This document shows positions 8,030 through 29,768 of a DNA stretch of 64,000 nt, in pieces. A model generated the notes under the pieces. That model did not search any database. It was not told where the DNA came from and saw only the letters and a program-made list of their open reading frames with translations. Both the position numbers and the translations under genes were made by a program. Position 1 is the first letter of the stretch, and the number at the start of each line of letters is the position of its first letter. The DNA comes from an uncultured Alphaproteobacteria bacterium (lineage in GTDB: Bacteria; Pseudomonadota; Alphaproteobacteria; RF32; CAG-239), in contig CALXVW010000051.1 of NCBI GenBank assembly GCA_944392185.1, positions 610 through 64,609 of the forward strand. Direction: 5' to 3'.

Positions 8030-9599
8030 AGTTATACAAACTTTGAACCATCAATTGAGAACTAAAAACCTTTAACAACCCGTTCATTTGCATATCTATG
8101 GCTTTGTTTAGCTCAACAATATTATCATATACTGCTTGAGCATCTAATTCTGGCGCAAATTCTACCGCATCAATAAAATTTTCTTCAAAACTGTCGGCAT
8201 CTTGTCTGGCCTTGTAAGCTTCTGCCATGCTCGCTGCCACATATTGTGCCAGTGCTTGATTGTAAACTTTTGGAGCATCACTTCCGGAAAATAATTGCGC
8301 ACTTTGCTTTTCTTTGTTTAATTTTAATAAACATTCATCCATTTTATTTTCTTCTAATGCATCACTTGAACTTAAACCACAATACATTGCCAGTGCCCGA
8401 GGAATAATGACCGTTCCGTTAGAATCCGTACCTCCATCCGGTAAGTTTAATAGCTCAACTTTAGCAAACATTAACGTTTCTGAGTGATGTAATGAAGATG
8501 TCGTAAAAGCTTTTCTTAGCTGAATATGCTCTGTCGGAACCGCAACCGATGGTTTCACTGTCTCTATTGGCGAAAGATCTTTTACCGCTTTTGTTTTTGC
8601 AGAATCTATTGTTGCTTTCTCTTGCTGTTTAATGCTTTTAGCCTCCATAATGGCCACTTCTGCTTCCGTTGCTTTTGATGCCGTTGTTTCGTCAACACTT
8701 ACTTGCTTATCTTGAATTTGTGATATTTTTGCCTTTAATGCATTTAGTTTCTGAGTTTCTTCTTCTGATAATGAATCCTTGCTTTCCAGTTGGTTGAAAG
8801 TATTTTGCTCTTCTTCTGTTAAGATTGATGATAATTCATTATTTGTCTTCTCTATTTTTGCATCCGTATCTGCTGCGTCCGTATCTGTGCCTGCTGCATC
8901 TGTGCCTGCCGCATCTGTGCCTGCCGCATCTGTGCCTGTATTATCTCCTTCAAACGGAATGCGGCTTGATGTTGGATCTGTTTCGGCAGCATTTTCCTTT
9001 GCTGTGTTCGTTTGGGCGTCTATTAAAACAGATTCATTTGTATCGGTAACAGCATCCGTCGTATCTGCTTCAACGTCTACCTCGGTGTCCGCTTTCTCTT
9101 CTTGTCCCTTATCTGTAGAAATTCCGGCTTTATCTTTAGCGGCATCTAGTTTACTATCCGCAACATCCTGAGCTGCAGAGGCTGTTTCTTTAGCCGTTTC
9201 AACTCCATCTTCTGCTTGCTCTTTTAGCTCTTTGGCCTTAGCAATGTTTTCATCTAATTGCTTTTTATATTGATCATACTCTTTTTTATACTCTTCTGCT
9301 TTCTTTTGATATTCTTGAACTTTTGCAATCTTTTCTTCCAATTTTTCTTTATTGGCTACTACATATTCTGAAACACTTTTTTTAGCCGTTCCTATGGCCG
9401 TACTGGTTTTTTGAACAGTTTGCATGGTGCCTACCACCGTCTTGCTTTCTTTAACTTCCGTAAACCATTGTTTAACTGTTTTTCCGGTACTTTGTGTATC
9501 CGTTACAACTGCTTGTGCCTGTACTTCTTCTGCACAAAAACCTATATACAGAAAGGCCAGAAAACCTCTCAGAAGTTTTTTCCAAAAACCTTTTTCCAT
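7980..9599 (-). CDS. 539-aa secreted acidic coiled-coil protein with TDAAG tandem repeat; helical C-terminus loosely VirB5/TraC-like
   Basis: Signal peptide MEKGFWKKLLRGFLAFLYIGFCAEEVQAQA. Contains in-frame 15-bp DNA repeats encoding (TDAAG)n. Shares two motifs with neighbouring paralogs. Sits immediately downstream of virB4. Confidence 0.55.
   Translation of the reverse strand: MEKGFWKKLLRGFLAFLYIGFCAEEVQAQAVVTDTQSTGKTVKQWFTEVKESKTVVGTMQTVQKTSTAIGTAKKSVSEYVVANKEKLEEKIAKVQEYQKKAEEYKKEYDQYKKQLDENIAKAKELKEQAEDGVETAKETASAAQDVADSKLDAAKDKAGISTDKGQEEKADTEVDVEADTTDAVTDTNESVLIDAQTNTAKENAAETDPTSSRIPFEGDNTGTDAAGTDAAGTDAAGTDTDAADTDAKIEKTNNELSSILTEEEQNTFNQLESKDSLSEEETQKLNALKAKISQIQDKQVSVDETTASKATEAEVAIMEAKSIKQQEKATIDSAKTKAVKDLSPIETVKPSVAVPTEHIQLRKAFTTSSLHHSETLMFAKVELLNLPDGGTDSNGTVIIPRALAMYCGLSSSDALEENKMDECLLKLNKEKQSAQLFSGSDAPKVYNQALAQYVAASMAEAYKARQDADSFEENFIDAVEFAPELDAQAVYDNIVELNKAIDMQMNGLLKVFSSQLMVQSLYNYGSYSFVPAESGDEDE
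8866..8940. repeat. 15-bp coding tandem repeat (about 5 copies, GCATCTGTGCCTGCC unit) inside the 539-aa gene
   Basis: Directly visible: gcatctgtgcctgcc twice in perfect form, plus degenerate copies on each side. Encodes TDAAG repeats. Candidate slipped-strand variable region. Confidence 0.7.
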
Positions 9600-9678: not shown

Positions 9679-12108
9679 TTAAATATTTAAATATTTTGTA
9701 ACAAAGTTTTCTTCGCCATATTCTTTTATCAGTTCTTCTACCAATAAAACATTCTTGCGACCGGAATTATATAATCGTAAATATGGCCCCAATCCGCTTA
9801 AATCGACATCTAAAATTACGGATTCTCCTGTTGCCGGACGTGATAACAAAATTGCATACGGAAAATCTCGATAGCTCTTACCAAAAATAAAGTCTGTTTC
9901 CGCATTAGTTAAGTTCCAGTTCAAATAATCTTCCGGTGTTGCCTGCGGATTGCGAAAGAATATAACTGTCTGACACTGACCACGAATAACTTCGCCAACT
10001 CCCAACTTATCAATAATATTTGGTTGTTGGAATGCACACAAATAGGCCTGACGTTTTTTACGCCCTTCTTGCAAACCTATAACAAAATAGTCTCTAAACA
10101 TTGGGTGCTTTAACATCGGTGCCGTTTCATCTATCATGATTAAGGAGGGAACACCTGTTTCACCTGTTTCTGATTGAATACGATGCATAATATAGCTGAT
10201 TACTGCCGGAGCTAATGTCTCATCTTCAAAAATATGCGTAAAATCAAAAGCCATAAAACGCTTGGACTTAAGATCCAAACTATCGGTATCCGCATTGAAA
10301 ATTTTACCATATTGATCCGGATTTACCCATTTATATAGTTCTCTTCGCATGTTTCCTGTCGGTGAAAAACAGCTTTTATATAAATTGGTCATCATGCGTT
10401 CTTCTGGACGAAGGTAATCAAATGCTGTCGTCACCGCTCTAGCAATCTCTTTTTCAGAAACGGCATCATCTACTAAAGTAATGGCTCGCATCCACCGACG
10501 CAAAAACGCTCTGTTATTAACGTTATTCTCACAATCAAACGGGTTTAATGAAACATTCTTTTCATCACCTTCAAATCCAACATAGGCTCCGCCTATTGCG
10601 CGAGTAAATATCTCCGCACCACGATGTCTATCAAAGAAGAATACTCGCAAATCATTGTGACGCATTGCCTGTCCGGCTAAAAATGTTAACAGTGTTGTCT
10701 TTCCTTGCCCCGTCGGACCAATAATACAACAATGTGCAACAGCTGAATCTTCACTTGATACGTGGAATTGGAATCGATAGGCAGAACCAGATGCCGTGCG
10801 GAATACTGTTATTGCCCCCGGCCCCCAGTCACTTCTAGAAAATCCCTCTGATGGCTTATCAAACGAAATGGCGGCAGCAACAACTCTTGATAAATATCTA
10901 TATGTCCTCGGTAATGTTTCATAAGTCGGAAATTGGTTAAAAAATGTGGCTTGTGTGACCCAGCCTTCCCTTACCGGAGTAACACCAAATAAACGACATA
11001 TTCTCTGAACTTCACTTTCGGCAAACTCTATTTCTTCTAGGGTTTCTCCTTGCAAAAGAATGGCCATAGCATACTCAGTTAGAGACTGGTGATTGGTATC
11101 ACTATCTTCAATTGCGGCCAAAACTTCACCATATTGATCAATAACATCTCCCGAAAAGCTCGTCATTGTGGCCATTCTTTGTTGCTGCATTAATAAAGCT
11201 CTGGCGTGTGGCTTAAATATCGGGCGAACATTGTGTAGCAGAACCAATTCAGAGTCTATGGACAACAATGATGTTACCATACTCTCATCCATATAATCCC
11301 CTGAAGATCGAATTCCCATCACTATCTCAAATTTTTCCGTATCTCCTGAGAAAAATCTGATTATTCCGTTTTCTCCTGTAAAATGAATGTGATCTGCCGT
11401 CAGTAATTCATTCAAATGAGCTCCTTCCGCTCCATTAATTTTGGGTTGCGGCTTGGTTATCGGACTACAGATTTTCGCATAGACAGACAACGGACTATCT
11501 GCCGCAGAACTTCCTTCTGCCTCAAACAATGCCATTACACCATATTCATTTAATGTGGCTATCAATGCTTGAGATGCATAGTTAAGATCCTTTAGATTTT
11601 CATCTCTATCGGCAACGGATAATACGATATAGTGTGAATTATTATAAACCCTGCTTAAATTTGAGCTCCACACCTCATCTATATGTTCAAGCAAAGCATT
11701 TCCAAAATCACCCTTGCTTTCTTCTAAAGGAATGCGTTCTCTTAATGTAATCACACGACAAGTAACTTGCAAATCAGACATCCCGTCAATCCAAGCTTTG
11801 CGCGCCTCCAACATCGACATAACTTTCTCATCGGTCACAAAAGCCAGATCAACCCCCGTAACACGAAAAACTCTGGCCAGAGAGCCATTATAACAACGAA
11901 TCGTCATTCCATCTGACAGCAACTTACTAAAAGGTAAAAAGTCAGAAACCCTTGACTCTCTTGGTTGCGGCAGCACATAATAGCCAAATTTCGTTACCCA
12001 AAATCCGGCAAATGCCGCGGCAGAGATAAATCCTATTACGGCGACTAAAACTTCTAAGTTTGTCAGACCTTGCACAAATGTGCTAAAAAAATCAAAATCA
12101 GGGTGCAA
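9679..12108 (-). CDS. virB4: Type IV secretion system ATPase VirB4/TrbE
   Basis: 809 aa. N-terminal TM segments. Walker A GPTGQGKTT and Walker B-like LIMIDETAP. Size and topology are typical of VirB4. Overlaps virB3 by 11 nt. Confidence 0.85.
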   Translation of the reverse strand: MHPDFDFFSTFVQGLTNLEVLVAVIGFISAAAFAGFWVTKFGYYVLPQPRESRVSDFLPFSKLLSDGMTIRCYNGSLARVFRVTGVDLAFVTDEKVMSMLEARKAWIDGMSDLQVTCRVITLRERIPLEESKGDFGNALLEHIDEVWSSNLSRVYNNSHYIVLSVADRDENLKDLNYASQALIATLNEYGVMALFEAEGSSAADSPLSVYAKICSPITKPQPKINGAEGAHLNELLTADHIHFTGENGIIRFFSGDTEKFEIVMGIRSSGDYMDESMVTSLLSIDSELVLLHNVRPIFKPHARALLMQQQRMATMTSFSGDVIDQYGEVLAAIEDSDTNHQSLTEYAMAILLQGETLEEIEFAESEVQRICRLFGVTPVREGWVTQATFFNQFPTYETLPRTYRYLSRVVAAAISFDKPSEGFSRSDWGPGAITVFRTASGSAYRFQFHVSSEDSAVAHCCIIGPTGQGKTTLLTFLAGQAMRHNDLRVFFFDRHRGAEIFTRAIGGAYVGFEGDEKNVSLNPFDCENNVNNRAFLRRWMRAITLVDDAVSEKEIARAVTTAFDYLRPEERMMTNLYKSCFSPTGNMRRELYKWVNPDQYGKIFNADTDSLDLKSKRFMAFDFTHIFEDETLAPAVISYIMHRIQSETGETGVPSLIMIDETAPMLKHPMFRDYFVIGLQEGRKKRQAYLCAFQQPNIIDKLGVGEVIRGQCQTVIFFRNPQATPEDYLNWNLTNAETDFIFGKSYRDFPYAILLSRPATGESVILDVDLSGLGPYLRLYNSGRKNVLLVEELIKEYGEENFVTKYLNI

Positions 12109-12388
12109 ATTTATTCCCCTTTACTTTATAAAGGTTATGAGATGTTTTGGCGGTTTGCCCGTAGGCTTGTATCATTGCTGATATGTGAGGCTCTTTTGCG
12201 CCAATAGCAATACAGATAATATGTCCGATGACCAAAGTAGCCATAAAAACCAACGGATTGATGTCAAATGTCCCCAAGAACATAAACATCATCGGAAACT
12301 GGATACCCATATTGAGCATCGTCGGCAAAAACGGCCCCCATAGTATCTTGGGCGGATTGGCTACGGCTTTTAATATAATTTCGCGCAT
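12098..12388 (-). CDS. virB3: Type IV secretion system protein VirB3/TrbD
   Basis: 96 aa. LKAVANPPKILWGPFLPTMLNMG followed by a hydrophobic helix matches the VirB3 pattern. Overlaps and precedes virB4. Confidence 0.7.
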   Translation of the reverse strand: MREIILKAVANPPKILWGPFLPTMLNMGIQFPMMFMFLGTFDINPLVFMATLVIGHIICIAIGAKEPHISAMIQAYGQTAKTSHNLYKVKGNKFAP

Positions 12389-12490
12389 CGTTTCAATCCC
12401 TGCATTGTTACTAATATTATGATACAGCTCTCATTTTTTTATGCAACACCCATAAAAAGGTTATCCCTTGCTTTCATCCAAATACATAAA

Positions 12491-12522
12491 AAAGAGGCAT
12501 TCTTACTACCTAGAATACCTCT
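12491..12522. terminator. Bidirectional rho-independent terminator between the giant virB2-fusion gene and virB3
   Basis: aaaaaagaggcattcttactacctagaatacctctttttt is an imperfect 10-12 bp stem flanked by A-run and T-run. It lies 40 bp downstream of the 1514-aa gene stop (minus strand). Confidence 0.55.
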
Positions 12523-12561
12523 TTTTTATGAATAATGCGTTAACTTTTACTTGTCAGAAGT

Positions 12562-15500
12562 TTATTTTCCCTCAAGCTCAAGTTGGCGGGCATATGCTTC
12601 GTTATACTTCACATCAGCGGCGTTCCTACGCTTAATTTCTTTTTCTAAAGTTGATTGAGCTTCTTGATATTGTCGCTCTGCACTTAGATAGTTATCTCTA
12701 GCAGCTACCAGAGCATTCATATGACTTGGGCTGTTGTTTCCGCTCTCATACTCCTTTATTAAGCGCTGCAATTCTGCCTCTGCTCGTGTTTTATTTGTTT
12801 CTGCGGCACTCACTGCAGCACGATATTCCGGAATATTCCGCTCTGCTGTGGCTTTTTCTTCTTTTGCTTGAGCTTGAATATATTTGCTCTCCTCCAGAGA
12901 TGCCTCCTTAGCTTTTTGCTCCAGCTCTTTGAGCGGTTCTTGCGCCTTTTCCGCTTTTTCTGCTGCCTGACGCGCTTCTTCTTGAGCTAGATTTGCTTGC
13001 TTTTGGAGTGTCTCTGCCTTAGCTTTTTCGCTTGGTGTTTGGGCTTCTTGCGCTGCTCTTTCTGCCGCAGCCCTCAATTCTTCAGCTTTTTTAGCTTTGG
13101 TTTCTGCATCATTCTTGGCTTGCCCCGCAGCTATCTCTGCTCGATTGTATATATCATTTATCTTTTCGGCTCTATCTACCGGATTGGATATACTATTCAG
13201 CTGTTGCTCCAATCTTTCAGCCTCTTGAGCTCTCCGCTGCTCTTCTTGCCTTGCTTGATCCTCTTTTTCTTGTGTCCATCCCGTATCTCTTTCTGCTTCA
13301 AGTTTGCTTTGCTCCGTTTTGGCTTCTAGAGCTTTTTGTGCTGCCTCTTGAGCTTTTTTCTTCTCATTCTCAGCAACCGTTTTCGTATTATTATAATCCC
13401 TTTCGGCTGCCTTGAGCGCATCGTCCGCAGCCCCCAGCTGTTTTAAGGAATCCTCATACGCCTTTTGTTTAGCTTTATTACCAGGATCTGACTTGAGATC
13501 TTCTTGCGCAGCCAGAGCGGCTTGCTCCGCCTGTTTCTTTTGGCTCTCAGCTTGTTCGGCTGCAAGCTTCTTATCCGCTAAAGACTGTGCTGCTTGCTCT
13601 GCTTTAGCCTTGGCCTCTTCAGCCTCCTTTGACGCAGCTATCTGTTCATCTTTTGCATTGTTAATCCCCTCTTCTAGAGACTGCTGATACAAGTCATCCA
13701 ACGGCGCTTTGGCTTCTTCTGCCTTTTGACGTGCCTCTTGCGCTGTTGACTTTGCCGTTTCGGCTACTGCCTTAGCTGCTGAAGCTTCATTTTTGGCTAT
13801 TTGCGCCCGATTGGCTAGACTTTCTGCCTTTTGCTTATCTTCTGCCGAGCCACTCTGAGCGGCTTTTTCTGCGGCGGCTTGTGCTTGCTGCGCCAGTTGA
13901 TCTGCTCTATTTTGAGCTTGACTTGCTTCGTTTTCTAGTCTTTGAGCCGTGCGCTCTGCCCCGGTGGCTTCGGCCTCTGCGGCTTGAGCCTCTGCTTGAG
14001 CATTTTGATATGCTTGAGAGCTTTGATTCTTGTCATTTGATTGCGAGGTATTAGAGCTTAAATCATTTAAAAGCCCCTCACCCTTCTTTATTTGTTGCTG
14101 TTCCGTCCGTTTGGCTTCTGCCTTAGCGGCCTCTTTTTTAGCTTCTGCAGCTCGCTTCTCTGCTTGGCGCTCCTGGCGGCCTTCATTGATACTCTTTGAA
14201 CCAAAAGCACTGAAATTTGCTGCCGCTCCAACAAGCGCTCCGGCCGTCTGGGTGGTATCCTGAACTTTTTGATTGACCTGATTCGATTTTTGAACAACAT
14301 TATTGGTAATGTCCATAAACCCTAGCTGTCCAGTGTTTTGCATATTTTTCTTGTTGCTCGCTATATCTCCTTCTATTGCATTACCTTTATCGTCAAAGCC
14401 GCTCTTCTTTACAACAACATTGCCATCTTTATCATATTCAAGATTTCCACCCCAACGATGCTCTACTCCGGTTACGTTACCATCCTCATCTCGGGTAACT
14501 TTTTGTCCCATCAATGCTGCCGTAAAGCCCCCTGTCGCTTCTCCCTTATCTCGACGGGCTTGCAATTCTGCTTGCTCATCTCGGCTCTTTGACATATCTT
14601 GAACATTGTTGGCTATATCTATGGTATTGGACATTACGTTGCTCATCATACCACCGGTAGAGCCAACTATGGCGTTAACATTTTGACCAATTTGACCCAA
14701 GGCATTGAAGCTATCTTCAAGATTGCCTTCTCCTATCTTATCTATGGCATCTCCTATGTTATTGGCTGCAAATTTGACACTTTCAACCGTATTTTTAACC
14801 GTATCTACCGTGTTTTGAACCTTCTTGGCCGTATCAACAGCCTTTTTACCGGCAGAAATCAAATCTTTTACACAGCTGGCAAATCCACCGCCGCCAAATA
14901 ATCCGCCTCCTTTTTGTTCTGCCTCACAAAAACCTCTGGTTTCCGTTTTCTTCTCTTCTTCCGCTGGCGGCTCTACCGATGTATCCGGCGTTTCAACAAG
15001 TTCAGGCGGCATATATGGTGTCATCTCATCTACCCACGCATATTCCGTATCGGCAAAAGCTCCGTGCAAATGATCTCCAAATTCGCTTGGCTTTTCCGTG
15101 GCTGCCAAATCCCTATTATCTACGGTATAAACCATGTATTCTATTAAACGACCCATATTGGCTACCAAGAATAAGCTAATGGCTATATTGGCAAACCATT
15201 TCCAGCTGATCTTATTGAATATGGCCATGAATGCAAAGGCTATTAAACCAAAGCCAGCAAATACATAGACTATCGGTTTTAATCCGACTAAAATTCTCGC
15301 CGCACGGCGTGTCAAGGTCGTAAATACATCGCCGGTATTGGAATAGTCTATTGTTCCAATATATTTTCCCGTAAATCGCTTATTTTCAACTCCCGAATCT
15401 TTAGCACTGCTAAAGGCTCTATATTCTTGACCAAAGTGTTCTCCTCCAAAATCATTTGCCATATCGCGCATTATATCCATAGCATCTTGCGCCATTCGAG

Positions 15501-17106
15501 TACCTTCTTTTGCCAACATTAATTCGTGCTCTGCATCTGCCAACTGCTCTTCTAATTGCGCCTGCATTGCACAATATTTTTCTGCATCAGCTTTTCCCTG
15601 TTTGGATGTTAGGGTCTTAGAATGTTCACAGGCTGCTTTTGCCTCTTTTAATGCGTTTTCTAAGCTTGCGACTTTATCTTCTGCTGCTTTTTGCTTTTGT
15701 TGGGCATCTGCCAAATTTTGTCTTGCTGACTCCGCTGCATCGCCTGCTACAGCTCCCAGTTCATTTGCTCTTTTCTCTTTTGCATCTTTTTCTTTATATG
15801 CTTCATCTGCAGCAGCCTTTGCTTCTGCTAATTTAGTCTCTAAATCGTCAAGTTCTGCACATGCTTCTTGATTTCCATTTGCACACTGCCCTTGTTTTTT
15901 TGCTAATTCTTCTGCTGCATCCTTATACGCTTGTACAGCGTTATCGTAGTTCTCGCTCGCTTTTTGTGCATCTTGGGCTGCTTTTTGCTTTTCTTCTTGT
16001 TCTTTGCGTAATTTTTCTAATCGAGCTTTCTCTGCAGCTTCTGCCGCTGCAGCTTCATCTGCCTCTAACTGTTTTCTGGCTTCTTCCGCTGCTGCCCTGT
16101 CTTCTGCCGTTAAGTCATCAATATTCTTCTTAGCATCATCTATGGCCCCATTGGCTTCATTAATGGTTTGGTTTGCTTTTGCTACTCTGGCAGATGCTTC
16201 ATCCATTTTTTGCATAGCTTTTTTACAAGCATTACTGTTGGGATCTTTACCACATTTTTTTTCAACATCTTTGGCAGCCTTGTCTCTATCTTTTTCTGCC
16301 TTTTTTTTCTCTTTTTGAGCGGCTTCAATTTTTTGTTGTTGAGCCTGGATAGAGGCTGTTGCCGCATCAATACCTTCCTGCTTGGCTTTTTGCTTGGCTT
16401 GCTCGGCTTCTCGCTCTGCTTGTTGAGCGGCGGTCATATCTGCCTTCATTCCATTTATTTGCTCATTTACTTTATCATTGGCTTCTTTGGCTTTTTGGTA
16501 ATCGGCAGAACCAGTTTCCGCTTTAGTTATTGCATCTGTGTAGGTTTTATCTTTCTTTGCCGCATCAATTGCTGCGGTTTTATCTTTTTTAGCTTGATTT
16601 AATGCTAACAACTTTTCTGAACACGCTCCGCCAGAGGCCATACATTGATCATAAGCGTCCTGAGCAGATTTAACTTTTGCCTCTTGTTCCTTGGTTACAT
16701 TAGAAACATTTTGATTATATGCTTGTTGTGCTGACTTAATGTTTGCTTGTCTTGCCTGCTCTTGTTTCTCATAGTTTGATCTTGCATCTTTTACTTCCTG
16801 AGAATTTACATAGTCACTGTACCTATTTTGAACATTTTGTTTTTGTTGATTAGCAATTTGTTTGTCCAAATCAGCTTCTAACTGATCCATAAAAGATTCA
16901 TTATAAGAGTTGCTGGCATTTTGTGCTGCGGTATTTGCGGCCTCATTGGCCTTTCGAGATTTCCTACTTTCTTTTTTGGTGACATTCCCAATATTATCTT
17001 GGTCAACCGCTAGCTGAGCAAAAACAGGTTGTGCACAATAGAAAGACGCGAAGACAAGTGCTCCGGCGACCAGAACTACTTTGCTTATTTTCTTTATGTT
17101 CATCAT
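12562..17106 (-). CDS. 1514-aa protein: signal peptide, about 570-aa coiled-coil, an internal VirB2/TrbC pilin-like two-helix membrane domain, then about 830-aa coiled-coil (giant VirB2-domain fusion)
   Basis: Signal peptide MMNIKKISKVVLVAGALVFASFYCAQPVFAQ. Internal segment ILVGLKPIVYVFAGFGLIAFAFMAIFNKISWKWFANIAISLFLVANMGRLIEYMVY aligns with the two paralogs: VVGGFGLVGLAFSAVFGKVNWKWFASLAVGLAILAAAGSIVNYATG (113 aa) and VVAGFGIIGVAVGGFFGNLNWKWLGAIIIALVVIATTGEIINMITG (310 aa). The rest is Ala/Glu/Lys/Gln-rich coiled-coil. Confidence 0.6.
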   Translation of the reverse strand: MMNIKKISKVVLVAGALVFASFYCAQPVFAQLAVDQDNIGNVTKKESRKSRKANEAANTAAQNASNSYNESFMDQLEADLDKQIANQQKQNVQNRYSDYVNSQEVKDARSNYEKQEQARQANIKSAQQAYNQNVSNVTKEQEAKVKSAQDAYDQCMASGGACSEKLLALNQAKKDKTAAIDAAKKDKTYTDAITKAETGSADYQKAKEANDKVNEQINGMKADMTAAQQAEREAEQAKQKAKQEGIDAATASIQAQQQKIEAAQKEKKKAEKDRDKAAKDVEKKCGKDPNSNACKKAMQKMDEASARVAKANQTINEANGAIDDAKKNIDDLTAEDRAAAEEARKQLEADEAAAAEAAEKARLEKLRKEQEEKQKAAQDAQKASENYDNAVQAYKDAAEELAKKQGQCANGNQEACAELDDLETKLAEAKAAADEAYKEKDAKEKRANELGAVAGDAAESARQNLADAQQKQKAAEDKVASLENALKEAKAACEHSKTLTSKQGKADAEKYCAMQAQLEEQLADAEHELMLAKEGTRMAQDAMDIMRDMANDFGGEHFGQEYRAFSSAKDSGVENKRFTGKYIGTIDYSNTGDVFTTLTRRAARILVGLKPIVYVFAGFGLIAFAFMAIFNKISWKWFANIAISLFLVANMGRLIEYMVYTVDNRDLAATEKPSEFGDHLHGAFADTEYAWVDEMTPYMPPELVETPDTSVEPPAEEEKKTETRGFCEAEQKGGGLFGGGGFASCVKDLISAGKKAVDTAKKVQNTVDTVKNTVESVKFAANNIGDAIDKIGEGNLEDSFNALGQIGQNVNAIVGSTGGMMSNVMSNTIDIANNVQDMSKSRDEQAELQARRDKGEATGGFTAALMGQKVTRDEDGNVTGVEHRWGGNLEYDKDGNVVVKKSGFDDKGNAIEGDIASNKKNMQNTGQLGFMDITNNVVQKSNQVNQKVQDTTQTAGALVGAAANFSAFGSKSINEGRQERQAEKRAAEAKKEAAKAEAKRTEQQQIKKGEGLLNDLSSNTSQSNDKNQSSQAYQNAQAEAQAAEAEATGAERTAQRLENEASQAQNRADQLAQQAQAAAEKAAQSGSAEDKQKAESLANRAQIAKNEASAAKAVAETAKSTAQEARQKAEEAKAPLDDLYQQSLEEGINNAKDEQIAASKEAEEAKAKAEQAAQSLADKKLAAEQAESQKKQAEQAALAAQEDLKSDPGNKAKQKAYEDSLKQLGAADDALKAAERDYNNTKTVAENEKKKAQEAAQKALEAKTEQSKLEAERDTGWTQEKEDQARQEEQRRAQEAERLEQQLNSISNPVDRAEKINDIYNRAEIAAGQAKNDAETKAKKAEELRAAAERAAQEAQTPSEKAKAETLQKQANLAQEEARQAAEKAEKAQEPLKELEQKAKEASLEESKYIQAQAKEEKATAERNIPEYRAAVSAAETNKTRAEAELQRLIKEYESGNNSPSHMNALVAARDNYLSAERQYQEAQSTLEKEIKRRNAADVKYNEAYARQLELEGK

Positions 17107-17169
17107 GGCGTCCTCCTATGTTCTATCTTCTAGCCATTGTTGCTGACTATTTTATTGCCATTTCTTGTG

Positions 17170-18102
17170 CTACTTCAGAGTATCTGTTATCATGGTGGCG
17201 GTGAACTCATCGCAACCGGTTATCATGTTTATTATCTCTCCGGTGGTGGCTATTACAACCAAAGCTATGATTATGGCTCCCAGCCACTTCCAGTTTAAGT
17301 TTCCGAAAAATCCTCCTACGGCCACTCCTATAATACCAAATCCCGCAACAACATATATCAAATCTCTTAGACCATTAAATATTTTGCTTCCTGTATCAAT
17401 TAAACCGGAGAATATACCATAATCGCTGGAACAACCTGTTATCGCCGAATCCGGCTGATGATCATTACCTGAAGAAGTAATCTGCTCACAGACACCGTTT
17501 ACCTTCTGATATCCATCAGGACATTTTTCTTCTTGTTCACCTTGCTTGTTTTGTTCATCTTGTTCTTTTTCGGGAACATTTTTATCTTCTTCTGCTTTTT
17601 TAGCCTCTTCAGCTTTTCTCTCTTCTTCAGCTTTTTTTGCTTCTTCAGCTTTTTTTGCTTCTTCAGCTTTTTTTGCTTCTTCTGCTTTTCTTGCTTCTTC
17701 TGCTTGTCTAATCTCTTCTGCTCTTTTTGCTGCCGCCTCTTTTAGAGCTTCCTCTCTCTTTTTTTGAGAACTTTCAGAATAATAATCCAACTCATCAAAC
17801 TCTTCTTGGCTGGATTTCTGAATGTTTTCATCTTTTATCTTTTGCTTTAGATCTTTTGCATAACTTTTTACCGCTTCAATTCTTATGCCTTTCTCATTAA
17901 AACGATAAAATGTTCTGCCATTGTCAGACAGCCATTTAACCCCTTCATCCTCTACAATATAGCCGCCCTCTGATTTGGCAAAAACAACGCCCGGAACCAT
18001 CATGGTGCTGACAAATACTGCCAAAAGTATTATTTGGCATATCTTCTTCAAATTTATCATTGCACCCTCCCGCTTAATTTCTTTCTTGTCCTTTAATATC
18101 AA
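17170..18102 (-). CDS. 310-aa VirB2-domain protein with N-terminal coiled-coil extension carrying (EEAKKA)n repeats
   Basis: N-terminal hydrophobic segment ICQIILLAVFVSTMMVPGVVFA after the first 20 residues (probable signal peptide). KAEEAKKAEEAKKAEE repeats encoded by 18-bp DNA repeats. C-terminal VirB2-like hairpin with the NWKW loop motif. Confidence 0.6.
   Translation of the reverse strand: MILKDKKEIKREGAMINLKKICQIILLAVFVSTMMVPGVVFAKSEGGYIVEDEGVKWLSDNGRTFYRFNEKGIRIEAVKSYAKDLKQKIKDENIQKSSQEEFDELDYYSESSQKKREEALKEAAAKRAEEIRQAEEARKAEEAKKAEEAKKAEEAKKAEEERKAEEAKKAEEDKNVPEKEQDEQNKQGEQEEKCPDGYQKVNGVCEQITSSGNDHQPDSAITGCSSDYGIFSGLIDTGSKIFNGLRDLIYVVAGFGIIGVAVGGFFGNLNWKWLGAIIIALVVIATTGEIINMITGCDEFTATMITDTLK
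17586..17700. repeat. 18-bp coding tandem repeat (TTCTTCAGCTTTTTTTGC, 3 perfect copies plus degenerate copies) in the 310-aa VirB2-domain gene
   Basis: Directly visible. Encodes the EEAKKA heptad-like repeat. The poly-T tract inside each unit is a potential slippage site. Confidence 0.7.
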
Positions 18103-18237
18103 CCAGCCAGACTGATTGATGTTAAAAGAAAGGGGGATAGGCTAAGCGGTTTCCCGTTTTTCCAAGACCCCCTTTGCCCTCTTCCTTGTTTGGATCGGGC
18201 TGCAAATCGCAGCCCGAAACCAAAACGAAGGAGAAGA

Positions 18238-18579
18238 TTAGTTGGTAGCATTATCAAATGAGTCTTGGAAACCAGACATATTTTCACCGGTTGCGTAGTT
18301 TACAATTGAACCAGCCGCTGCCAAGATAGCAAGACCTACAGCCAACGAAGCAAACCACTTCCAGTTGACCTTTCCAAAAACCGCACTAAAGGCCAAGCCA
18401 ACCAAACCAAAACCACCGACTACGAAAATAATCGTCTTAACGGAGGTAAATACGTTTAAGGCCTTTTGCTGTGATGTCTGCATTACACTGGTTTGTGCTG
18501 ACGCATCGCCGGCAAATGTCAACAGTGTAAAGACTGCCACCAAGCAAAATGTCCAAATGTTGTTTTTAATAAATTGCAT
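18238..18579 (-). CDS. virB2: VirB2/TrbC-family T-pilin (canonical size)
   Basis: 113 aa. Signal peptide ending AGDASA-Q, then two hydrophobic helices separated by a GKVNWKW loop (VirB2/TrbC pilin topology). First gene of the operon. Followed by a 9-bp-stem hairpin at 18195-18217. Confidence 0.7.
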   Translation of the reverse strand: MQFIKNNIWTFCLVAVFTLLTFAGDASAQTSVMQTSQQKALNVFTSVKTIIFVVGGFGLVGLAFSAVFGKVNWKWFASLAVGLAILAAAGSIVNYATGENMSGFQDSFDNATN

Positions 18580-18853: not shown

Positions 18854-18889
18854 ATTTTGATTTATCAAGTCTTTAGAGGGGTTTATTTT

Positions 18890-20578
18890 ATGCCAAAAAC
18901 AGGTTTAAAAACTTTTGTTTACAGCTTTTCCGTATCCTTGTTCGCTATTTTTGCCGCTAACGGGGTATATTGGCATGACCGCCCTTCTAAAACTTCTGAT
19001 CTTAAAATTTCCAGCAAAAATATCACGCTTTTCTTAAAAGATGCGGCAAACAACCCCTCTCATAATGTCGCACCCGTAAAGAAAATCGCACTCAGTGTAC
19101 TGCCTGAACTAAAACACGGCAGCCCTTCTGCCGTTCCTGAAGATGAAATTATTATGGCTGATGACTTTGATCTGCCGGAAATTCCGCTGGAGCTTTCACT
19201 CCCCTCTTTAGAATCTCCTTTGCAAGAAAAAAAAGATGTCAAACTTGCTGAAAATGCTGCCCCTAAACCTACATTAATAAGACAGGAAACTCAGGAGCCG
19301 CCACAGCCGGATAAAATCGTTATTCCTCTTGAGGCTCCTCAATCCAAAGGTCTTGTCCGCCCCAAAAAAGCCGAAGAATTTTCTGCTCCGGAATCTTTGC
19401 TCATAAGCGAGCACCCCTCTAAAGAAAAGCAAAAATTTCCGAATCTTTTGTTGGCTACGAATGAGGCCTTTCAAAATGAAACACCGTCTGATACCTTTGC
19501 TGCTGCCTTAAAAGATGAAGATGCCGACCTTTTGCTTCCTCTCGAAAAGAGCGGCGACAATAAACCATCGTCAAAAAATATTATCAAAGTGGCCGCAGAC
19601 AATGCCGTAAATCAAGTCGCTCTGGCAGATAAATCCATCCCTGTTCATAGTATGGAGAAAAATATATCCTCAAACGATCTTTCATTCTCAAAAGCTTCTT
19701 CCCCCTCGTGGGAAAGTATGGCTGACAGCAAAACAACAGATTCCCCTTGGCTTGTTGCAAAAGCTGACGGCGCTCTAAAAAACCAAAAAATTTCAGAAGA
19801 AGCATTCTACCAACAAGATGCCGCAAACATTAAAGGCGCTCTTAGCCCCAATACCCCCTCCGGCAATGGGGTTAAGGTTGCGTCAGAAACCGTAAAAAAT
19901 CTTCTTATTCCCATTCCGGAAGATATTTTAAATGATGAGAACCTAACTCCTCAACTATCTTACACCCCAAAAGAAACAAGCGGAAAAGAAGATGCCCCTA
20001 AAGATACAACCGCCGATGCTTCTTCTTTATCATCACCAACTCCGACAACGCCTGCAGCCTCATCGACAGAGACTAAAACTACCTCCGACGAGCAAAAAAA
20101 CAAATTGCTTGCATCTCTTGATGCTATTTTTAGTGCAAGTTCAATCAAAAATAAAACCCCTCCAAAAGAAGAAAAAAAGAATCTTCTCAGCAGTGTACGA
20201 AAAAAAATACAAAAACGCAGCAGTGTCGGCAAAATTATGCCTACCGAGATGAGGCTTTCTTTTCAACCAAACCGCGCCGAAATATCCGGACAAACTTTGC
20301 GCTGGATACAGGCCTTTGCCACCAAAGCGGCTGAAAATAACAATATGACCATTGAAATAAGAATTGATGGCACCAGCGCCATGGATCTTCAACAAAAAAG
20401 ACTTAATCTCTTACATAATATATTGACCGATAAAGGTGTCGAATACAGCAAAATAAATACTGTATTCACTCAACGAGAACCAAACTCGTTTATTATTAAA
20501 ACCATTACCCACAATAACCAGAAAGGAGCCAACGGAAATTTAAATAAAGCGTCTAACGGATATTACATCCAATGGTAA
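18890..20578 (+). CDS. 562-aa membrane-anchored/secreted protein with Pro/Ser/Glu-rich linker and conserved C-terminal globular domain; first gene of pilus operon
   Basis: The ATG at 18890 follows an AGAGGGG RBS (the ORF track starts at an upstream TTG). N-terminus MPKTGLKTFVYSFSVSLFAIFAANG is a signal/anchor. Long low-complexity middle. The C-terminal about 110 aa is globular (possibly a peptidoglycan-binding-like fold, uncertain). Confidence 0.45.
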   Translation: MPKTGLKTFVYSFSVSLFAIFAANGVYWHDRPSKTSDLKISSKNITLFLKDAANNPSHNVAPVKKIALSVLPELKHGSPSAVPEDEIIMADDFDLPEIPLELSLPSLESPLQEKKDVKLAENAAPKPTLIRQETQEPPQPDKIVIPLEAPQSKGLVRPKKAEEFSAPESLLISEHPSKEKQKFPNLLLATNEAFQNETPSDTFAAALKDEDADLLLPLEKSGDNKPSSKNIIKVAADNAVNQVALADKSIPVHSMEKNISSNDLSFSKASSPSWESMADSKTTDSPWLVAKADGALKNQKISEEAFYQQDAANIKGALSPNTPSGNGVKVASETVKNLLIPIPEDILNDENLTPQLSYTPKETSGKEDAPKDTTADASSLSSPTPTTPAASSTETKTTSDEQKNKLLASLDAIFSASSIKNKTPPKEEKKNLLSSVRKKIQKRSSVGKIMPTEMRLSFQPNRAEISGQTLRWIQAFATKAAENNNMTIEIRIDGTSAMDLQQKRLNLLHNILTDKGVEYSKINTVFTQREPNSFIIKTITHNNQKGANGNLNKASNGYYIQW

Positions 20579-20635
20579 TAAGTCTTGAGAGGCGCTTGAT
20601 TATTTATTTTTCAGTATGTATGATAGGAAAAAAAT

Positions 20636-21376
20636 ATGACAAATTCTAATCCGAGGATAGCAAAAATGAACCAAACTTTACGGCACGGCGCGTCTGCGCT
20701 AATGATCTTTCTTATAACAGGGTGCAGCCATTGGGATCTGTTTGGCGCCGGAAACACTTATGTCGAAGATACACCGACAGCCGTAAGCTCCTCTGCCACA
20801 CAAATGCCCGCATCTGCGGCTCCTGTTATGACTGTGGAAACTCAAACGGAGGCTCTTATTGTTCCTCCTGAACAGAATAATGATAGTGATTTTATTAATT
20901 ATCGACAATCTGCGGCAGATTATCGTGAGTTTGGTGAGCGCGCTCCAAGAGATCAAGATATCGTTACTTCCGGAGCCGGAAGTAATATGGCGGCGTCTAT
21001 CCCTCCAACCATTGAGGAAGAAGTAACAGACTACGAAGAAGAAATTAATGCGGCGATTGAAGAAAATTCAGACAGCAGCCAGTCGCAACAATCTGTTGGC
21101 GAAGACCCCGTAGAAGATTGGCTGGCTGAAGAAGGTAGTACGCTTAAAGGCCTGTTGACCGATTGGAGTGAAAGAGCCGGCTGGAGATTGATTTGGAACA
21201 GTAACCGCAATTACACTTTAGCCGCAGGCGCAATGTTTAGAGGGCGTTTTGCCGATGTGAGCTCTGCTTTAATCAGAACCTTTGCCAGAGCAAAACCTGC
21301 TCCGGTGGCAACTTTTTATAAAGGAAACAGAGTCTTAGTTGTTGAGACCATGGAGGATGAGAATGCATATAACTAA
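20636..21376 (+). CDS. pilL: PilL-like lipoprotein with TcpQ-type C-terminal domain (type IVb pilus biogenesis)
   Basis: Lipobox LITGC. C-terminal motif WSERAGWRLIWNSNRNYTLAAGAMFRGRF...ATFYKGNRVLVV resembles the TcpQ/PilL domain of R64 and PAPI-1 thin-pilus systems. Position immediately before the secretin gene, as in pilL-pilN. Confidence 0.55.
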   Translation: MTNSNPRIAKMNQTLRHGASALMIFLITGCSHWDLFGAGNTYVEDTPTAVSSSATQMPASAAPVMTVETQTEALIVPPEQNNDSDFINYRQSAADYREFGERAPRDQDIVTSGAGSNMAASIPPTIEEEVTDYEEEINAAIEENSDSSQSQQSVGEDPVEDWLAEEGSTLKGLLTDWSERAGWRLIWNSNRNYTLAAGAMFRGRFADVSSALIRTFARAKPAPVATFYKGNRVLVVETMEDENAYN

Positions 21377-22964
21377 TTGGAAAAAACTTGGATTTGGAAT
21401 GTTGGCGGCAGCATTCGCAGCCTCTTGTTCTATATCTACAAATTTAGATGCAACAATTGATCGTGAAGTAGAAGCCGCGACAAAACTTAAAGAGGCCGCT
21501 AAGGCACCTACTCCTTTGGCAAATCAAGACCTGATTAAGGTTAAGGATGAAATTTGGCTTGGTAATACGAGCGAAATTGAATATGAAGGAGAACCCTTGC
21601 CCGCTTATCTTGAGGGAAAAAACGGTATTACTTTGGTCAGCAATCGGCCGATTACTTTGTTTGAAATCGGAGATATGATCAACAAAACAACGTCTTTGGG
21701 CGTTCGTTATGCGCCACAGCTTGAGACAGATGTTAAATCTAAGGGCGCAGCAAACAAACCAACGGCAGAAGCTATTAATACCGACTGGGCAGAGCCTGAT
21801 AAAATGCTGGTTTCTTACCAGGGGCCTTTAAGCGGGCTGCTGGATGAAATTGCCTCTCGTTTCGGAATTTGGTGGAGATATGAAAAGAAAGAAATTCATT
21901 TCTATAAATTTATTACCAAGACTTTTGTCGTCTATAGCTTACCGACAAAACCGAATTTGACGGTTACTGTCGGCGGAAGCCAAAGCGGAAGCGGCGGAAG
22001 CTCTTCTGTGAACTTGAATAACTCCGCAGAAGTTGAGCTTTGGGGCAATTTTGAGAAGAGCATTACCTCTATGATCAGTGATGGTGCTAAACTTACAATG
22101 TCTCCGGCAGACGGGACCATAACTTTAACGGCAACACCTAATGATATCAAAAAAGTCGCAAAATACATCAATGAACAAAATGCTCGCTTGTCAAGACAGG
22201 TTGCTATTAGTGTTAAAGTGTTACAGGTAACCATCTCAGATACCGATAATTACGGCCTAGACTTGAGCGCTACTTTTAAAGACGGGGTTACTTCTATAGG
22301 TGTAACTGGATCAACAAGCATCAGTTCTGCTGAATCTGTCGGCAATACCTTGAGCTGGGGAATCCTAAACAAGCCCTGGACTGCAGATGCGGCGGTTAAA
22401 GCCTTGTCTCAACGGAATAATACCAGCTTGGTGACCAGCGGTACTGTTACCACGCTTAATAATAAACCCGCTCCAATTCAGGTTACTCAAAAGCAAAACT
22501 ACATTGCTGAAATGACAAAAACAAATAGCGGAACAACAGGTGACAACTACGATATTTCCGTTACGACGGAAGAAGTTGAAACCGGATTTACTCTCGATGT
22601 TTTGCCAAGAATCCTTGAACACGGCAGAATGCTCGTGATGTTCAACATGACACTGTCTGACCTTGTTTCTCTTGATAAGGTTGAGTTTGGCGCCGAAGAT
22701 GAAAACCAATATATTCAGAACCCGCATATTGAATCTAGAGCCTTTACTCAAGAGGTGGCTATGACTTCAGGAGAATCTCTTATCTTGACCGGATATGAAA
22801 GAGTTAATAATTCTACAACCAAAGAAGGAACAGGATCTGCTGAAAATTCTTTACTCGGCGGCGTTGCTAACGCTGAAAAAGAACGCAGTGTTTTAGTTAT
22901 CATTCTCACTCCGGTAGTGCTAGAAACACCTTTATCCCCGGAATCTAGAATGTCTATGAATTAA
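21363..22964 (+). CDS. pilN: PilN-like lipoprotein secretin (type IVb pilus outer-membrane channel)
   Basis: Start MHITNWKKLGFGMLAAAFAASC carries lipobox AASC. The C-terminal secretin domain (VKVLQVTISDTDNYGLDLS...ERSVLVIILTPVVLE) is the conserved secretin C-terminal pattern. Overlaps the pilL stop. Confidence 0.7.
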   Translation: MHITNWKKLGFGMLAAAFAASCSISTNLDATIDREVEAATKLKEAAKAPTPLANQDLIKVKDEIWLGNTSEIEYEGEPLPAYLEGKNGITLVSNRPITLFEIGDMINKTTSLGVRYAPQLETDVKSKGAANKPTAEAINTDWAEPDKMLVSYQGPLSGLLDEIASRFGIWWRYEKKEIHFYKFITKTFVVYSLPTKPNLTVTVGGSQSGSGGSSSVNLNNSAEVELWGNFEKSITSMISDGAKLTMSPADGTITLTATPNDIKKVAKYINEQNARLSRQVAISVKVLQVTISDTDNYGLDLSATFKDGVTSIGVTGSTSISSAESVGNTLSWGILNKPWTADAAVKALSQRNNTSLVTSGTVTTLNNKPAPIQVTQKQNYIAEMTKTNSGTTGDNYDISVTTEEVETGFTLDVLPRILEHGRMLVMFNMTLSDLVSLDKVEFGAEDENQYIQNPHIESRAFTQEVAMTSGESLILTGYERVNNSTTKEGTGSAENSLLGGVANAEKERSVLVIILTPVVLETPLSPESRMSMN

Positions 22965-22983
22965 TTCACTAAGGAGAAAACTG

Positions 22984-24261
22984 GTGCTGGAAGAAGCCAA
23001 ACTGCTTGATGATGATATTGAAAAAACCTCAGCAAAAAGAACCTGGGGAACATCAATTACGGTTGATGGCATGACTTATGCCACCAGTTTATTCTGGCAA
23101 CCTCTACAAAATACCAGCGATCCGTTCCAAGAAGTGGAAGAAGCTTCCGCCGGCGTATTGGAAGGCGCTGATTTATTCTGTATTAAAGGCGGAAAAGCTC
23201 CTCAATTTGGTATTTGCGTTTCTCATGAAGGATATAAAAACGGAGAAACCGTCGGTGCCGTGGCCCTGGCAACTGCTTTGTCCGATGTGGGATCTTATGT
23301 CGCTGTATTCAAAACCCAAGAAGGATGGTGGTACGTTTGTATTCGAAACGATATTATCCTTTCTGACGGCGACATGCTTTTCTTGAGTGAAGACGAAGCC
23401 AAAGAGCAGTTTATGTCTATGCTCGCCGTGCCTGATTGGGGGAAGAAAATTGCCCCTAAAGAATGGGCTATTGAAGAAACGGAGGAATTGGACCTTGGCG
23501 ATTTGCTTATGCGAGGGGCTAAATCTAAACTCCAAAAGATTAAAGCGTTGCGCGGCACGAAGCTTTTCATGGTTATTGCTATTTCTGCTGTGGTTGGAAT
23601 TTGGTTGTTATCCAGCCTAATTGACACTATCTTCTTAACCCCTACAGTCAGGCCCGTTGTTGTTCCCGTTAAGCCTAAAGCTATTCAAAAGGCGGAACCG
23701 ATCGTCGAAATTAAACCATGGGAAAAGGTTCCTAATGCAAAAGAAGTTATGAAAAATTGTTATGACGGAATTGTGGCATTAAATAAAATCCTGCCCCCAG
23801 GATGGGATATCGGAACAATTTCCTGTTCCAACGGAAGTGCTGCAACTACTTGGAAAAGAAGTGTGGGACAAATTGCTTGGGCTCAAAAAGCTCTTGATGA
23901 TTCAGGGCTGCACTTTTCCGGAAGAAGCTTTTCTTCTAAAGGAGATGACCTTTCGGCTACTTTATCTTTACCAAAGGCTGAAGAGCTTCTGAACCCGCCT
24001 CAAAAAAATCTACTTGATTTGCAAGATGACATCAATAACACCTTTCAATCAATCGGGGTTAATATTGCTTTGTCTATCGGAGCGGCAAAATCTTCTACCG
24101 GAGTAAATTATCGAACCCTTCAGTTTTCTTTGAATTCTGAATATAATCCATTGACTTGGATCAATTTGTTAACAAAATATTCAGGACTTGATATTAAACT
24201 AATTTCATATTCGCCACAAACTAAGCTATGGCATTACGAGGGAGCTATCTATGTTTTATAA
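22984..24261 (+). CDS. PilO-like type IVb pilus assembly protein
   Basis: 425 aa. GTG start 8 nt after an AAGGAG RBS. One internal TM segment (LFMVIAISAVVGIWLLSSLI). Position between the secretin and PilP/PilQ matches pilO of R64-type clusters. No direct motif support. Confidence 0.35.
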   Translation: MLEEAKLLDDDIEKTSAKRTWGTSITVDGMTYATSLFWQPLQNTSDPFQEVEEASAGVLEGADLFCIKGGKAPQFGICVSHEGYKNGETVGAVALATALSDVGSYVAVFKTQEGWWYVCIRNDIILSDGDMLFLSEDEAKEQFMSMLAVPDWGKKIAPKEWAIEETEELDLGDLLMRGAKSKLQKIKALRGTKLFMVIAISAVVGIWLLSSLIDTIFLTPTVRPVVVPVKPKAIQKAEPIVEIKPWEKVPNAKEVMKNCYDGIVALNKILPPGWDIGTISCSNGSAATTWKRSVGQIAWAQKALDDSGLHFSGRSFSSKGDDLSATLSLPKAEELLNPPQKNLLDLQDDINNTFQSIGVNIALSIGAAKSSTGVNYRTLQFSLNSEYNPLTWINLLTKYSGLDIKLISYSPQTKLWHYEGAIYVL

Positions 24262-25576: not shown

Positions 25577-25582
25577 TGTTCA

Positions 25583-27271: not shown

Positions 27272-27282
27272 GGGAAATAATA

Positions 27283-28413: not shown

Positions 28414-28415
28414 TA

Positions 28416-29011: not shown

Positions 29012-29126
29012 AGTTATGACTTTGGTTATATCCTTTCGTACTTTTTATGACTAAGGATAAGATTGTTCATAATTTATTAATTTGTTATAGTTAAACTATA
29101 AACAAAGTGAATCGAGGAGAGATACT

Positions 29127-29720: not shown

Positions 29721-29740
29721 TAAAAAAAACACTCTCTTTT

Positions 29741-29768
29741 GGACCCCGCCTCTAAGGCGGGGTTTTTG
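29741..29768 (+). terminator. Rho-independent terminator after pilin gene
   Basis: ccccgcc tctaa ggcgggg stem-loop followed by ttttt. Confidence 0.7.

Follow-up and report, generated by a model that had tools for sequence, protein, structure and literature searches.

Background

With about 70-90 mature residues, VirB2 pilins are seen as minimal subunits. Known members of the TrbC/VirB2 family are made as precursors of about 100-130 aa, some of which are cyclised head to tail. Little is understood so far of how the pili of type IV secretion systems (T4SSs) are nucleated, tipped and targeted. Here, a VirB2 locus is described in a 64,000-nt stretch of DNA from an uncultured alphaproteobacterium (contig CALXVW010000051.1, positions 610 to 64,609; hereafter the window). 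Three consecutive genes encode a pilin of ordinary size (class P) and two much longer proteins that contain the same hairpin (classes M and G). The locus shares the fold signature and the gene position upstream of virB3-virB4 with the TrbC/VirB2 pilins of P-type T4SSs (Agrobacterium VirB2, R388 TrwL, pKM101 TraM, RP4 TrbC). Unlike these, M and G proteins are extended at one or both ends by 130 to about 2000 residues, an extension that rules out cyclisation, and class G has a conserved domain of about 320 aa without known relatives.

Multiple VirB2-type genes occur in other T4SSs. The Bartonella Trw system has several TrwL copies, all of them small and varying in number. In Anaplasma phagocytophilum and A. 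marginale, tandem VirB2 paralogs with variable N- and C-terminal ends are found near virB4, and an antigenically variable surface organelle was proposed (PMC3556328). These paralogs are all small (two helices and a signal peptide), and their number varies between strains from 8 to 15 (PMC3556328). The window differs from the Anaplasma/Ehrlichia arrays in having exactly three ancient classes instead of a variable number of small paralogs; variable termini are present, grown into arms of hundreds of residues. In solved conjugative pili, a positively charged loop faces the lumen and the N- and C-termini are exposed to solvent (bioRxiv 10.1101/2024.03.04.583355). No description of VirB2 domains fused to long extensions, or of the T4SS of the gut Alphaproteobacteria treated below, was found in open-access papers and bioRxiv. 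This agrees with an earlier note on this DNA, made from the sequence, whose author did not recognise the architecture from described T4SSs.

Three consecutive genes encode VirB2 hairpins

The genes of the triad are as follows; each of the three open reading frames (ORFs) exists at the position given.

18238-18579, minus strand: class P gene, 113 aa
17170-18102, minus strand: class M gene, 310 aa from TTG 18102; alternatively 17170-18060, 296 aa from ATG 18060
12562-17106, minus strand: class G gene, 1514 aa, ATG with Shine-Dalgarno sequence AGGAGGA 6 nt upstream

P, M and G are consecutive and co-oriented, and the gene order in the window is P-M-G-virB3-virB4. In a Pfam search, the 113-aa protein scored 39.3 bits against TrbC/VirB2 (PF04956; cut-off 27.9). 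The same family was the best meaningful match of the 310-aa protein (20.2 bits, E 7e-4) and of the 1514-aa protein (18.8 bits, E 2e-3), both below the cut-off. The two long proteins are nevertheless tied to P by BLASTP. The three hairpins are 37-39% identical to each other across 57-71 residues, with E-values of 3e-18 (113 vs 1514 aa), 3e-16 (113 vs 310 aa) and 1e-15 (310 vs 1514 aa). The annotated TrbC/VirB2 of Microvirga plasmid pMVF16-3 was matched by all of them (E 6e-19, 5e-14 and 7e-12 for P, M and G, respectively). A Pfam search with cores of the class G family gave a TrbC match for 11 of 13 (best E 7e-7) and nothing else notable. The earlier note had considered that the hairpin might turn out to belong to an unrelated membrane-anchor family; no such family was matched in Pfam by the window proteins or the 13 family cores, TrbC being the sole family of note.

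All three proteins possess an N-terminal, Sec-type signal sequence and the hydropathy peaks of one VirB2 hairpin. The PF04956 traits of a signal peptide, two hydrophobic helices and a short basic loop are thus present in P, M and G, and the triad has the PF04956 gene position upstream of virB3-virB4. The small precursor of about 100-130 aa that consists of little but the hairpin is seen in P and not in M and G. Class P has the appearance of an ordinary VirB2/TrbC pilin precursor: its signal peptide ends …FAGDASA (followed by QTS), and its hydrophobic peaks lie at aa 50-68 and 75-93. The loops read FGKVNWKW (P), FGNLNWKW (M) and FNKISWKW (G), with the shared form [GN][KN].[NS]WKW. The basic residues of the loop are conserved in P and G ([GN]K.[NS]WKW), while M (GNLNWKW) retains the second Lys only. 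A GxxNWKW loop had been reported for all three proteins; the WKW part is indeed common to them, but the literal motif fails in G. Judged by these matches, the hairpins of P, M and G are homologous to bona fide VirB2. ORFs, Pfam and BLASTP agree in this respect with the original description of a canonical 113-aa pilin and two paralogs with long extensions attached to their hairpin.

The triad is conserved across gut Alphaproteobacteria

A search with the central part of the giant class G protein retrieved 46 unnamed metagenomic proteins of 226-759 aa, several of which carry a precomputed PF04956 match. A scan of species-representative genomes gave 170 matches, and 80 loci were kept for the counts reported here. 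All 80 are from uncultured gut bacteria, almost all of them labelled Alphaproteobacteria or Proteobacteria; a single metagenome-assembled genome (MAG) bears the label Lactobacillus. Among the sources are human (Hadza, Nepal, Brazil, CAG:495, UMGS63), mouse, roe deer, sheep, yak and water deer. We take CAG-495 and its relatives to belong to the order RF32 of GTDB; the records themselves say Alphaproteobacteria only. One paper refers to CAG-495 as an unstudied genus of the human gut.

With a home-made hidden Markov model (HMM), the triad was detected in 68 of the 80 loci. It comprises a pilin of about 113 aa, a protein of 110-300 aa with a C-terminal hairpin and a third protein of 153-2042 aa. 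For each of the P, M and G hairpins, the nearest neighbour in another genome belonged to the same class (68/68). Mean hairpin identity is 0.51-0.65 within a class and 0.27-0.33 between classes. Both results point to a triplication that is older than the radiation of the clade. The three hairpins, as far as their sequences tell, are an old, sub-functionalised triplication with one member of each class per operon and not recent cassettes.

An exhaustive profile search across 1.84 billion cluster representatives yielded 662 matches at E <=1e-3, 452 of them at E <=1e-10. Among the 140 best new representatives, 119 have at least 300 aa and 30 at least 1000 aa; the longest has 2138 aa. Between related genomes, arm lengths range from near zero to about 700 aa on the N-terminal side and about 1350 aa on the C-terminal side. 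The earlier note had allowed for the long ORF being an assembly artefact that joins separate genes. Intact orthologues of at least 1000 aa in many independent MAGs show that the ORF is no artefact and that the fusion is a trait of the family. The survey of related genomes suggested in that note, whose author had missed the spread, identifies the triad as a clade-wide trait.

Some proteins combine several hairpins. Fusions of M and P hairpins occur in independent assemblies as proteins of about 252 aa (P0132; L003 9087-9845; L022 7647-8453), and tandem-hairpin proteins (P0047, P0125) have three hairpins in 308 aa and six in 399 aa.

Long VirB2-domain proteins of 526-837 aa were also seen as orphans, with no pilin, VirB3 or VirB4 nearby (L064, L067, L071, L077, L078, L081, L084). 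Some of the orphan long copies are extra copies within a genome: UMGS63 has two loci and HGM16780 three.

Hairpins are constrained and arms nearly free

Identities between the window and its closest relative (L006) are listed below; the comparisons of the arms and of the N-terminal part contain many gaps.

VirB4: 98% identity
VirB3: 96% identity
Class P pilin: 96% identity
Class M hairpin: 94% identity
Class G hairpin: 96% identity
Class G C-proximal domain: 90% identity
Class G N-terminal arm: 51% identity
Class G distal arm: 33% identity (41% in a global alignment), with about 200 gap columns
Class M N-terminal part: 25% identity (39% in a global alignment)

At four-fold degenerate sites of virB4, 55% differ between the window and its closest relatives, which is near saturation. 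The M and G hairpins are thus conserved to the level of VirB3 and VirB4 despite near-saturated synonymous divergence. From these identities, hairpins and C-proximal domain are under very strong purifying selection. The arms retain their composition and helical character and are almost free in sequence and length. Their divergence is no proof of positive selection, because the synonymous sites of virB4 are near saturation. Diversifying selection on the arms was considered and dropped, since near-neutral drift with kept composition suffices.

Anatomy of the class G and class M proteins

The class G protein consists of four parts downstream of its signal peptide.

15352-17013, minus strand: N-terminal arm, aa 32-585, A/E/K/Q-rich, helical
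15112-15351, minus strand: VirB2 hairpin, aa 586-665, …GFGLIAFAFMAIFNKISWKWFANIAISLFLVANMG…
14152-15111, minus strand: C-proximal domain, aa 666-985, conserved, low A/E/K/Q content
12565-14151, minus strand: distal C-terminal arm, aa 986-1514, A/E/K/Q-rich with an Ala-based heptad-like pattern (home-made heuristic), very variable in sequence and length

The hairpin had been described as sitting between about 570 aa and about 830 aa of Ala/Glu/Lys-rich coiled coil. Arms are present on both sides, but aa 666-985 are a distinct, conserved domain. This domain contains the motifs GDxL…GFADTEYxWV and RGFC…SC[VI]KD (Cys 727/745), followed by helices and a small beta-rich part. An iterative search within the family set placed it directly behind the hairpin in 128 of 186 sequences. 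It matched no known family or fold, and a Foldseek search against PDB with a low-confidence model of the G core and C-proximal domain gave nothing below E 0.4. The domain was previously unrecognised and is a candidate new protein family. The exact sequence of the 1514-aa giant was not on record in a database look-up, and its gene has no substantial DNA repeats.

AlphaFold2 predictions are informative mainly for the hairpin. For aa 560-1010 of the giant and 26 sequences, the mean predicted local distance difference test (pLDDT) was 49.9 and the hairpin alone was confident. With 67 homologues, the overall mean rose to 61. The class G hairpin was then predicted as helix-loop-helix (pLDDT 74-91), as expected for the VirB2 domain proposed in the earlier note; the helix and small beta-rich part reached pLDDT 74-90 in model residues 240-330 only. 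A profile search against PDB sequences matched the colicin E3 receptor domain, TolA (E 3e-4), EmrA, a methyl-accepting chemotaxis protein and, for the distal arm, tropomyosin and SMC-type proteins. These matches are compositional and of coiled-coil type. Sequence and profile searches of PDB found no solved pilin.

In class M, the more likely start is ATG 18060, with a Shine-Dalgarno sequence GGAGGG 5 nt upstream. The protein initially given as 310 aa is therefore probably 296 aa long; the position of its hairpin at the C-terminus holds. Its layout is a signal peptide, a variable N-terminal part, a charged AEEAKK helix, a Cys-containing linker and the VirB2 hairpin.

17191-17439 (approximately), minus strand: class M VirB2 hairpin at the extreme C-terminus (own HMM 91 bits, domain aa 222-304)
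17586-17705, minus strand: 18-nt tandem repeat encoding the AEEAKK repeats, 6.7 copies (TRF score 177, 89% matches)

The 18-nt repeat could alter the length of the charged helix by slippage, and the length of this region differs greatly among relatives. Helical character was assessed with a home-made heuristic, which is not a validated predictor and was run with no shuffle control. By this measure, the AEEAKK stretch has many i,i+4 charge pairs and no heptad hydrophobic pattern, and an Ala-based a/d heptad periodicity runs across much of class G. The AEEAKK stretch thus looks more like a charged single alpha-helix than a coiled coil. The label coiled coil, used for the long extensions, finds limited backing in the heptad signal of the giant and in the coiled-coil-type profile matches; it does not fit the AEEAKK stretch, and AlphaFold confidence is mostly low outside the hairpin.

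Topology of the hairpins and arms

Since each hairpin has two membrane helices and is preceded by a cleavable signal peptide, its two ends lie outside the cytoplasm, and with them both arms. The N-terminal arm of the window's class G protein has four short-range Cys pairs (155/162, 285/294, 408/416, 493/512), and the ten mature cysteines of the whole protein form five such pairs. In the N-terminal arms of 60 homologues, 410 of 443 cysteines are paired at a distance of 3-22 residues, where chance would give about 207, and 57 of 60 homologues with long N-terminal arms have an even number. Such pairing is the mark of helix turns that are stapled by disulfides in an oxidising compartment. Together with the signal peptides and the hairpin topology, the paired cysteines indicate that both arms are extracytoplasmic.

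RNA hairpins within the gene cluster

Two stem-loops are predicted in the intergenic regions of the cluster.

18178-18236, minus strand: GC-rich stem-loop right after the pilin stop codon, core stem 18195-18217 (CGGGCTGC…GCAGCCCG), without U-tract
12485-12530, minus strand: terminator-like hairpin between the class G gene and virB3, 19-bp stem followed by a T-run

For the P-M intergenic region (135 nt), RNAfold gave -56.4 kcal/mol (z = -4.9 vs mononucleotide shuffles). A hairpin with differing stem sequences is found at the same post-pilin site in L003, L004, L006-L009, L011-L013, L016, L018 and L031. As a candidate attenuator or mRNA stabiliser, the conserved stem-loop might set a high ratio of pilin to paralogs, and it fits a surplus of pilin over M and G. 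In the G-virB3 intergenic region (173 nt; -40.5 kcal/mol, z = -3.4), the hairpin could act as a terminator. A scan for consensus promoters and terminators gave counts no higher than expected from shuffled sequences, and no invertible or promoter-switch element was seen at the triad cluster.

Operon and chromosomal context

The triad is followed by two conserved T4SS genes and a run of genes for secreted proteins, with a VirB8 gene at the left edge of the window.

12098-12388, minus strand: VirB3-like protein, 96 aa, 28% identity to Microvirga VirB3 (E 6e-9)
9679-12108, minus strand: VirB4 ATPase, 809 aa, Pfam CagE_TrbE_VirB (E 1.2e-13)
361-9599, minus strand: six consecutive signal-peptide proteins between virB4 and virB8 (539, 221, 378, 164, 481 and 1315 aa)

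VirB4 is 38.8% identical to that of Microvirga pMVF16-3 over 94% of its length. A VirB3-like gene follows the triad in 63 of the 80 loci, and the order triad-virB3-virB4 is present in 62-63 of them (e.g. L003, L004). The cluster is chromosomal. In the window it lies near gpsA and tRNA genes, in L004 it adjoins cmk and rpsA, and in L089 it ends at a housekeeping GTPase.

Among named symbiont records, the nearest VirB4 (30%) is from the plasmids of Candidatus Paracaedimonas acanthamoebae (CP008940.1 / L002); free-living alphaproteobacterial plasmids score higher. In the same record (L002 10628-11906, CP008940.1), unannotated genes for 229 and 104 aa lie upstream of a VirB3-like gene.

None of the six secreted proteins, which are acidic or coiled-coil-like, matched a family in Pfam or NCBIfam. 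The motif 'IIPR.xAMxCGxSS…ECLxKL' is common to those of 539 and 221 aa. The 539-aa protein is 59% identical to its L006 counterpart, compared with 98% for VirB4.

The continuation of the operon was read in relatives (L087 10001-20759; L089 1-12331; L086 1231-3021). It encodes VirB8, a VirB7-like lipoprotein of 62-63 aa, a second VirB8 paralog and VirB9 (Pfam CagX). These are followed by a protein of 1138-1266 aa made of DGxVxDxxGNxIG-type repeats and then by VirB10 and VirB11. VirB10 is filled with repeats of the same type as well and has at least 1512 aa in L087 and 448 aa in L089. VirB8 is also known to be duplicated in Rickettsiales, in the vir homolog T4SS. No VirB5, VirB6, VirD4 or relaxase was recognised in the operon stretches read, which does not imply absence from the whole genomes; in relatives, no VirD4 was found before housekeeping genes resume. 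NCBIfam searches with the T4SS proteins returned low-complexity noise only, and a metagenome scan with the partial VirB8 found one 3.4-kb contig.

On the other side of the pilin gene, a second pilus system is encoded divergently.

18857-30819, plus strand: complete type IVb pilus cluster, adjoining the VirB2 pilin gene

It comprises a 573-aa unknown protein, a TcpQ/PilL-like protein, secretin, PilO, a 441-aa unknown protein, a T2SSE ATPase, a T2SSF platform protein, two PilS/bundlin-type pilins and a second ATPase. This cluster stands beside the triad in 51-60 of the 80 loci, and the recurrent pairing suggests that the two pilus systems may work together.

Past the type IVb cluster, genes for a von Willebrand A protein, a PP2C phosphatase and a Ser/Thr kinase (31997-34867, plus strand) form a possible signalling module. 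Further on, a low-GC island (about 38640-60000; 27-35% vs about 40%) starts at a tRNA-Ser gene (38640-38730). It contains genes for a large serine recombinase, N6/N4 and C5 DNA methylases, a DnaB-like helicase, an OLD-family nuclease and a GmrSD-type restriction enzyme, and looks like an integrated mobile or defence element.

Discussion

The triad is best explained, in our opinion, by a major pilin P and two low-abundance pilin-like subunits M and G that co-assemble with it and display their arms outside the cell. We hold this reading with slightly less than even confidence. Sec would export all three proteins, and they would sit in the inner membrane as VirB2 hairpins, with the basic loop facing the cytoplasm. 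The same VirB3/VirB4 machinery would handle M and G, since their VirB2 hairpin is nearly unchanged. M and G would then pack beside class P subunits in the pilus or its base. Their arms would project outward, namely the N-terminal arm of M and, for G, the domain of about 320 aa together with the variable helical arms. The likeliest sites are the tip, if M and G are the first subunits in, or sparse positions along the shaft, and the likeliest role would be that of spacers or adhesive fibres for target contact. The solvent-exposed termini on solved pili make extensions at either terminus topologically compatible with a position in the lattice. In addition, the M-P fusions and the tandem-hairpin proteins suggest that the hairpins are probably neighbours in one assembly. 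That M and G decorate, or polymerise into, a pilus or surface layer, as the earlier note had imagined, is inferred.

Several points weigh against this proposal. Taken alone, M and G remain under the gathering score of the Pfam TrbC family. A pilus that starts from the inner membrane must pass an outer-membrane channel, and the subunits in question carry 200-1400 extra residues. A/E/K-rich helices are also typical of periplasm-spanning proteins, and TolA is among the profile matches. The fast divergence of the arms fits surface fibres and periplasmic spacers alike and is thus no evidence for surface exposure. Finally, VirB5, VirB6 and VirD4 were not recognised in the operon, so that the machine itself is atypical.

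In the main competing reading, M and G form an inner-membrane-anchored periplasmic scaffold and take no part in an extracellular filament. The hairpin would dock at the site of VirB3, VirB4 and pilin, and the arms would serve as spacer, stalk cage or ruler. Such a scaffold would spare huge subunits the threading through the outer-membrane channel, its helices would resemble TolA domain II (with profile matches to TolA, EmrA and the colicin receptor domain), and the paired cysteines fit the periplasm equally well as the surface. Other parts of the machine are enlarged too (VirB10 with at least 1512 aa, the repeat protein of 1138-1266 aa), and a simple spacer is consistent with arms that evolve near-neutrally. 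We regard the scaffold as a serious alternative, if less likely than co-assembly. Arms that vary between relatives from near zero to about 700 aa (N-terminal) or about 1350 aa (C-terminal) are hard to reconcile with a ruler of fixed width, and 1400 residues of helix far exceed the periplasm unless folded back. The conserved lumen-type basic loop, complete in P and G and reduced to one Lys in M, would also be left unexplained. A more remote idea is that P, M and G are interchangeable major pilins expressed at different times for antigenic or host-range variation, which would yield 'hairy' pili. It draws on the Anaplasma paralogs, which likewise lie in tandem upstream of virB4 with variable ends (PMC3556328), on the seven loci with orphan long copies outside the T4SS operon and on the 18-nt repeat by which the class M gene could change length. 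We find it improbable: three ancient orthologous classes, one each per operon in 68 loci, are not variable-number cassettes, the genes form one co-oriented cluster with no invertible or promoter-switch element seen, and a homopolymer of 1514-aa subunits would be the sterically least plausible option. A reading of the long ORFs as chimeras of the assembly or as decayed genes, with the hairpin as a generic hydrophobic anchor, has a next to negligible probability. The sub-threshold Pfam scores of M and G and the failure of a PDB sequence search to find a pilin would agree with it. It is refuted, as is a chance resemblance, by intact orthologues of the same architecture in dozens of independent human, mouse and ruminant gut assemblies, by the orthology of the three classes, by hairpin identities of 94-96% at near-saturated synonymous divergence and by TrbC being the only family matched (11 of 13 cores).

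The proposed minor subunits can be compared with other T4SS components. The tip adhesin VirB5/TraC has a role like that suggested for M and G, being minor, pilus-associated, target-contacting and encoded in the same operon. This is an analogy only: M and G show no sequence similarity to it, and their attachment would be by the VirB2 fold instead of the VirB5 helical bundle. No VirB5/TrbJ-type match in Pfam or NCBIfam was obtained for the operon proteins, including M, G and the six secreted proteins, at E up to 1. The Foldseek search with the G model gave no such fold either, a weak test in view of the low confidence of the model. A VirB2-VirB5 fusion was rejected, as neither sequence nor fold evidence supports it. 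The Helicobacter Cag T4SS also has enlarged core components (CagY, an enlarged VirB10, and the VirB9 CagX), and VirB9 of the present system matches Pfam CagX. The VirB2-like Cag protein, CagC, is small. Proteins specific to Cag were not found, and the resemblance is one of style and not of membership. The likeness of the arms to TolA domain II and to ER/K single alpha-helices is compositional only. In contrast to TolA, which has a single N-terminal transmembrane anchor followed by domains II and III, the anchor here is a VirB2 hairpin behind a cleavable signal peptide, and domain III was not matched.

Should M and G co-assemble with P, they would represent a new surface structure of T4SSs. The VirB2 fold would be a universal socket, by which fibrous arms of up to about 2000 residues and the domain of about 320 aa are plugged into the pilus lattice, either at the tip or along the shaft. 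The result could be a decorated or fibre-tipped pilus of conjugative type that replaces the missing VirB5 adhesin, a possibility that we put forward tentatively and regard as well short of even. If true, cargo-bearing subunits would be accepted by the pilin lattice or by the site where the machine handles pilin. M and G would then be natural tools for asking where subunits enter the pilus and how the pilus crosses the outer membrane. The T4SS is chromosomal, order-wide and highly elaborate: its VirB8 is duplicated, its VirB10 is giant, and six secreted proteins and a neighbouring type IVb pilus accompany it. The finding suggests that a common gut lineage, which includes the CAG-495 group, has a major and so far uncharacterised apparatus for cell contact.

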